A DNA stretch of 64,000 nucleotides from Escherichia coli (GTDB taxonomy: Bacteria > Pseudomonadota > Gammaproteobacteria > Enterobacterales > Enterobacteriaceae): the NCBI RefSeq assembly GCF_044647545.1, contig NZ_CP172818.1; one strand, written 5' to 3'. The translations under genes were made by a program, and so were the position numbers. Shown here one piece after another: positions 60,475 through 60,506 of the stretch (the stretch's first letter is position 1; each line of letters starts with the position of its first letter). Below the pieces are notes generated by a model. That model did not search any database. It was not told where the DNA came from and was given only the letters and a program-made list of their open reading frames with translations.

Positions 60475-60506
60475 AGATGTCCAGATGTATTGACGTCCAT
60501 TAACAC
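60475..60506. promoter_or_regulatory. Tandem metbox array (MetJ operator) upstream of metB
   Basis: Four contiguous 8-bp units AGATGTCC AGATGTAT TGACGTCC ATTAACAC resembling the AGACGTCT metbox. Confidence 0.5.

Follow-up and report, generated by a model that had tools for sequence, protein, structure and literature searches.

Where does the MetJ operator between metJ and metB begin and end, and how can one site control two genes that are transcribed away from each other? The DNA analysed here (the window) is a 64 kb stretch of an Escherichia coli chromosome in which metJ and metB are divergent, with about 276-277 bp of intergenic DNA between them. The metJ gene encodes the repressor that binds the array described below. 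It lies on the minus strand at 59968-60285 (start codon 60285..60283), codes for 105 aa and is annotated as metJ in K-12 and other E. coli. Its product matches the NCBIfam equivalog NF003622 over the full length (222.7 bits), and the Met repressor structures 1CMA and 1MJ2 were matched at E of about 1e-67. Membership in the MetJ operator family calls for a cognate repressor, and its gene is intact in the window. On the plus strand, the repressed gene downstream of the array is metB (60562..61722), which encodes cystathionine gamma-synthase of 386 aa and carries this annotation in E. coli; NF005961 aligns to residues 1-386 of 386 with 872 bits. The longest mechanical open reading frame for metB is a TTG-initiated one of 424 aa from 60448 to 61722, which crosses operator and promoter. 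It was rejected as the true metB because the alignment to the family model, over residues 1-386, begins at the ATG at 60562. A sequence-only reading had placed four tandem metboxes at 60475-60506, in the divergent region upstream of metB. With metJ starting at 60285 on the minus strand and the metB ATG at 60562, this location is correct.

The same reading had divided 60475-60506 into AGATGTCC AGATGTAT TGACGTCC ATTAACAC, exactly as the window reads, and had taken all four units as approximations of AGACGTCT. The first three agree with this repeat at 6/8 positions each, but ATTAACAC agrees at 1/8. We scored the units with the weight matrix of Augustus & Spicer 2011 (PMC3228920 Table 3), which derives from 832 half-sites and gives the consensus a score of 12.58 bits. 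Because 8 of the 832 half-sites are E. coli boxes, the matrix is partly trained on this species, and the resulting circularity is slight. By the criteria of PMC3228920, no box of an array may score below a quarter of the consensus (3.15 bits), and the boxes together must reach the full consensus score (12.58 bits). AGATGTCC (60475..60482) scores 8.96 bits and falls in the top 0.02% of window 8-mers; AGATGTAT (60483..60490) and TGACGTCC (60491..60498) score 8.57 and 6.87 bits. Among all 63,993 8-mers of the window, the three units rank in the top 0.02-0.1%. ATTAACAC (60499..60506, plus strand) scores -14.46 bits, a value equalled or exceeded by 58% of window 8-mers, and it falls below the published threshold for a box. 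Judged by matrix score against background, as the sequence-only reading had itself proposed, three of its boxes are far above background and the last is no better than background.

The other flank holds a further box. AGAAGTTT at 60467..60474, absent from the sequence-only reading, has 6/8 identity with AGACGTCT and scores 6.78 bits, in the top 0.11% of window 8-mers. The true array is therefore 60467-60498, composed of four contiguous boxes, AGAAGTTT-AGATGTCC-AGATGTAT-TGACGTCC, which we call metboxes 1 to 4. Their scores sum to 31.18 bits, and every box as well as the total exceeds the published thresholds. The four units of the 60475-60506 frame sum to 9.94 bits. To the right of ATTAACAC, the next in-register unit, AATGTTTA at 60507, scores -15.2 bits, and a matrix scan of 60440-60520 found no competing register above 0.8 bits. 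Thus the claim of a MetJ operator made of 8-bp units holds in its register and in its count of four, but its boundaries were set 8 bp too far to the right. MetJ operators typically lie within about 75 bp of a translation start, the distance applied in this analysis. Between the end of the array and the metB ATG there are 63 bp, and the array overlaps a TTGACG -35 hexamer, a location that fits a methionine-regulon promoter region. On every criterion that can be tested from sequence, the array belongs to the MetJ operator family. We consider it very probable that 60467-60498 is the classical MetJ operator common to the divergent metJ and metBL promoters.

The background of the window was examined with the same matrix. 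The four-unit sum of 60467-60498 is the highest in the 64 kb, and the published criteria return two arrays only, this four-box array and a two-box array at 19475. In 300 dinucleotide-preserving shuffles, we found 0.68 arrays per shuffle and 0.003 arrays of at least four boxes per shuffle, with a maximum total of 20.2 bits; the array at 31.18 bits exceeds all 300. The second array, AGATAGCT AAATATTT at 19475-19490, scores 12.8 bits, barely passes the two-box criteria and is inside a 582-aa minus-strand open reading frame (19387..21135). As a second operator it was rejected on account of its low score and its position within this frame, about 0.7 such arrays being expected by chance.

The window was then compared with the operator of the reference strain. 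Table S1 of PMC3228920 lists the operator of K-12 MG1655 metB (b3939) as agaagtttagatgtccagatgtattgacgtcc, with 4 boxes, 31.2 bits and a gap of 63 bp, and the reverse complement of agaagtttagatgtccagatgtattgacgtcc for metJ (b3938), with a gap of 181 bp. The K-12 operator matches 60467-60498 base for base. Sequence, box count, score and the distances to metB (63 bp) and metJ (181 bp) are identical in the window. The comparison with a reference strain suggested by the sequence-only reading thus confirms an operator at this place, but it leaves ATTAACAC outside and includes AGAAGTTT, which that reading had omitted. From 60445 to 60539, which takes in the operator and both promoter regions, the window is identical to MG1655; three positions differ across the intergenic region, all of them outside the array.

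Variation within E. coli is limited. MG1655 and five other strains, chosen to include the most divergent, have a mean identity of 98%. Among the five strains other than MG1655, the array varies by a single base: in one of them A is replaced by G in box 3, so that AGATGTAT reads AGATGTGT. ATTAACAC reads ATTACCAC in 3/6 strains. The metJ-metB intergenic DNA was found in 5425 of 5426 complete E. coli genomes, with 100% identity in several. The remaining genome gave no match; two matches were on plasmids, and one genome carried three copies. A 263-bp sequence, NZ_BPQV01000048.1, labelled Methylobacterium organophilum, is 99.2% identical to the metJ 5' region of the window and has GTG where the window has the ATG start codon. 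Since MetJ is confined to certain gammaproteobacteria, this fragment is almost certainly E. coli or laboratory contamination of that assembly.

Because variation among the E. coli strains was too low to be informative, we used a cross-genus scan. One genome per species was scanned for a conserved metJ coding pattern, which gave 120 metJ loci from Enterobacterales, Vibrionales, Aeromonadales, Pasteurellales and Alteromonadales. We used the 81 loci in which metB is divergent from metJ and a TGAYGKCY box could serve as the anchor (unit 0), 52 from Enterobacterales and 29 from other orders. By construction the anchor fixes box 4 and most of the -35 hexamer, and the species are related, so that the counts below are non-independent. 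The mean scores for Enterobacterales and for the other orders, respectively, were -0.4 and -5.7 bits at unit -4, 5.4 and 6.8 at unit -3 (box 1), 9.5 and 11.9 at unit -2 (box 2), 8.0 and 3.8 at unit -1 (box 3), and 8.2 and 7.4 at unit 0 (box 4). They were -10.7 and -13.4 bits at unit +1, the position of ATTAACAC, and -13.9 and -10.7 bits at unit +2.

The proportions of passing units follow the same boundaries. The homologue of box 1 passes the metbox threshold in 90% of the 52 Enterobacterales and in 93% of the 29 other species. Box 2 passes in all 81 species (100%), and box 3 in 100% of Enterobacterales and 83% of the other orders. Over the 81 species, units -3 to 0 pass in 83-100%, with unit 0 being the anchor, and units +1 to +3 in 0-4%. 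All 32 bp of the array are conserved with the 8-bp metbox period across several orders. Judged by this comparison, the four-box operator is ancient and conserved, and the position of ATTAACAC appears free to vary.

The metB promoter was established from cross-species conservation. Its predicted -35 hexamer, TTGACG (60490..60495, plus strand; 5/6 match to TTGACA), straddles metboxes 3 and 4 and consists of the last T of box 3 and TGACG of box 4. It is present in 81/81 species, in part through the construction of the anchor. The -10 hexamer would be TACTCT (60513..60518, plus strand), which begins after a spacer of 17 nt and matches TATAAT at 3/6 positions. A consensus promoter scan did not call this promoter, which matches 8/12 positions against a threshold of 9. 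Among the 81 species, a TAnnnT motif follows TTGACG with a spacer of 17 nt in 78% and of 16 nt in 21%, together 99%, and at every other offset from 4 to 33 it occurs in 9% or less. In other species the -10 takes the forms TATTCT, TATGCT, TAATCT, TATCCT and TAAAGT. TTGACG-17-TACTCT is accordingly the metB promoter that we predict from hexamer matches and conservation. ATTAACAC occupies positions 4-11 of its 17-nt spacer, and this location would explain why it is not conserved.

On the metJ side, the promoter scan gave two overlapping sigma-70-like candidates on the minus strand, P-a and P-b, each matching the consensus at 9/12 positions. P-a is TGGACA-18-TAGATT (60483..60454). Its -35 hexamer (60478..60483) falls within metboxes 2 and 3, box 1 is part of the promoter's spacer, and the -10 hexamer (60454..60459) keeps a fixed distance from the array in Enterobacterales. 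TGGACA is found in 34 of 46 Enterobacterales, with TAGACA in another 8, and TAGATT in 42 of 46. P-b is TTGAGC-17-TAAAAT (60455..60427) and lies wholly outside the array, its -35 hexamer (60450..60455) being 12 bp away and its -10 hexamer at 60427..60432. TTGAGC occurs in 37/46 Enterobacterales and TAAAAT, in the ungapped register, in 32/46. The same TTGAGC-17-TAAAAT is listed for the metJ/metB spacer among the "constitutive promoters" obtained by genomic SELEX with RpoD holoenzyme (PMC3946193).

PMC3228920 describes three promoters for metJ, of which one is constitutive, and a repression of metJ of only about two-fold. P-b is a candidate for the metJ promoter described in the literature as not repressible. 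This matching of P-a and P-b to the published promoters is inferred from hexamer matches and conservation. The third metJ promoter of the literature was not located among the promoters predicted on the metJ side of the window. The supplementary tables of PMC4782308 (Cappable-seq) and PMC10301672 (ROSE) contain no transcription start entries near K-12 positions 4128520-4128640; window positions are converted to K-12 coordinates by adding 4,068,110.

These data bear on three other ways of reading the region. If the operator were 60475-60506, as the sequence-only reading had it, ATTAACAC would be a degenerate fourth metbox that is filled through cooperativity. It directly adjoins three good boxes in the same register, and its homologous position holds a passing metbox in two of the 52 Enterobacterales, Pantoea stewartii (AAATGTAA) and a Providencia MAG (AAACATCT); therefore this position can host a box in some lineages. 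None of the 29 species of other orders has one there, and the columns carry about 0 bits of information across the 81 species. The identity of 1/8 and the score, which more than half of the window 8-mers reach, also speak against a box. Moreover, the published K-12 operator excludes ATTAACAC, and the count of four is already supplied by AGAAGTTT on the other flank. Its score, its lack of conservation and its absence from the K-12 operator led us to reject ATTAACAC as a degenerate box, an assignment that we regard as very improbable. A MetJ dimer that is held cooperatively could still contact the DNA beside the array non-specifically.

The opposite doubt, that the metboxes are a chance resemblance or that the region is conserved for the two overlapping -35 hexamers alone, with no binding of MetJ, has even less to recommend it. 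The hexamers at 60478-83 and 60490-95 cover 12 of the 32 bp and account for some of the conservation. Against this, the periodic conservation extends beyond the hexamers over the whole array in several orders, no shuffle came within 10 bits of its total, and its sequence is identical to that of an operator with published MetJ repression. A chance match is effectively refuted by the shuffles, the conservation and the identity with K-12, and we give this explanation practically no weight.

An extension on the metJ side deserves more attention. The in-register unit to the left of the array, ATACGCAA (60459..60466), has 4/8 identity with AGACGTCT and scores -0.88 bits, in the top 4.5% of window 8-mers. 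It might be a weak fifth metbox, filled cooperatively, that extends the array to the metJ -10 hexamer TAGATT. In Enterobacterales, the columns of ATACGCAA each carry close to 2 bits, a conservation almost like that of the boxes, although most of the unit is promoter spacer, which would not be expected to be constrained in this way. The related forms ATAAGCAA and AACAGCAA persist in Vibrio and Aeromonas, and the homologue scores high enough to count as a metbox in the Providencia MAG, two Gilliamella and Zophobihabitans. However, ATACGCAA scores below the published threshold of 3.15 bits, was not called for K-12 by Augustus & Spicer (PMC3228920), and passes as a unit in only 10% of Enterobacterales. 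Its conservation could also reflect promoter function: its first base, and only this one, belongs to the -10 TAGATT, and its minus strand reads TTGCGT, which is -35-like. A five-site operator is thus unlikely. If ATACGCAA were a cryptic low-affinity site filled only at high SAM, the set-point of metJ autoregulation would differ from that of metB repression.

With the four-box operator at 60467-60498 as the preferred reading, a mechanism of repression can be proposed. The sequence, scores, background, K-12 identity and conservation were computed here; the binding of MetJ and SAM, cooperativity and repression are taken from the literature. Every 8-bp box is occupied by a single MetJ homodimer, and a minimum of two adjacent boxes is required for repression (PMC3228920); where the array is longer, several homodimers are arranged around the DNA, and SAM acts as a corepressor that increases the affinity of MetJ for DNA (PMC2775130). 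According to PMC3228920, the E. coli metB and metJ operators are among those tested for repression by reporter assay and gel shift. Each of the four boxes in the window would be bound by one ribbon-helix-helix homodimer of MetJ, with neighbouring dimers cooperating and S-adenosylmethionine raising their affinity. Under the array lie two back-to-back -35 hexamers, 6 bp apart, that of metB on the plus strand and that of P-a on the minus strand. By covering these hexamers, the occupied array may exclude RNA polymerase from the metB promoter and from P-a; we infer this occlusion from the arrangement of the sites. The expected outcome is strong end-product repression of metBL and partial autoregulation of metJ, the latter presumably only partial because metJ has promoters outside the array. 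A single array over two back-to-back -35 hexamers would explain how one site controls both divergent genes. The operator itself is already known in full and is ordinary. As a textbook site identical to that of E. coli K-12, it has little significance beyond its correct annotation, and the useful result of this analysis is the corrected coordinates, 60467-60498 instead of 60475-60506.

The arrangement in the window can be compared with metJ loci of other species. In the metJ-metB operators of other Enterobacterales, Vibrionales and Aeromonadales, the four-box array ends in TGACGTCY, which with the preceding T gives TTGACG, and a TAnnnT -10 comes after another 16 or 17 nt. The array of Vibrio and Aeromonas is about 75 bp from metJ, compared with 181 bp in the window. 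The number of boxes also varies: arrays of 3 boxes were found in Morganella, Xenorhabdus and Proteus, and arrays of 5 or 6 boxes in Pantoea stewartii, two Gilliamella, Zophobihabitans and a Providencia MAG. At six Colwellia loci and five loci of Alteromonadaceae relatives, two separate arrays, not one four-box array, lie upstream of metJ, with 2-4 boxes each and starts about 36-57 bp apart, which points to a separate operator for each divergent promoter in these species. At seven Pasteurellales loci (Rodentibacter, Necropsobacter and Actinobacillus), metJ has no adjacent metB and no metbox array was detectable upstream of it, in agreement with the erosion of the MetJ regulon that has been noted in the literature for this order.

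Other ribbon-helix-helix repressors, such as ParG and CopG (PMC3413123), likewise assemble as several cooperating dimers on short repeats, which are regularly spaced and overlap a promoter. Their operators differ from the metJ/metB array in repeat sequence and spacing and in having no SAM corepressor, so that the likeness is a functional analogy only. Closer relatives are the other MetJ operators of E. coli, which share tandem 8-bp units resembling AGACGTCT near the promoters of methionine genes, with totals of 15-31 bits. Those of metF, metA and mmuP have 4 boxes, those of metE/R, metN and metK have 3, and those of metC and ybdH/mtnE have 2. Compared with the other tabulated K-12 operators, the metJ/metB array has the highest total score and serves two divergent promoters.
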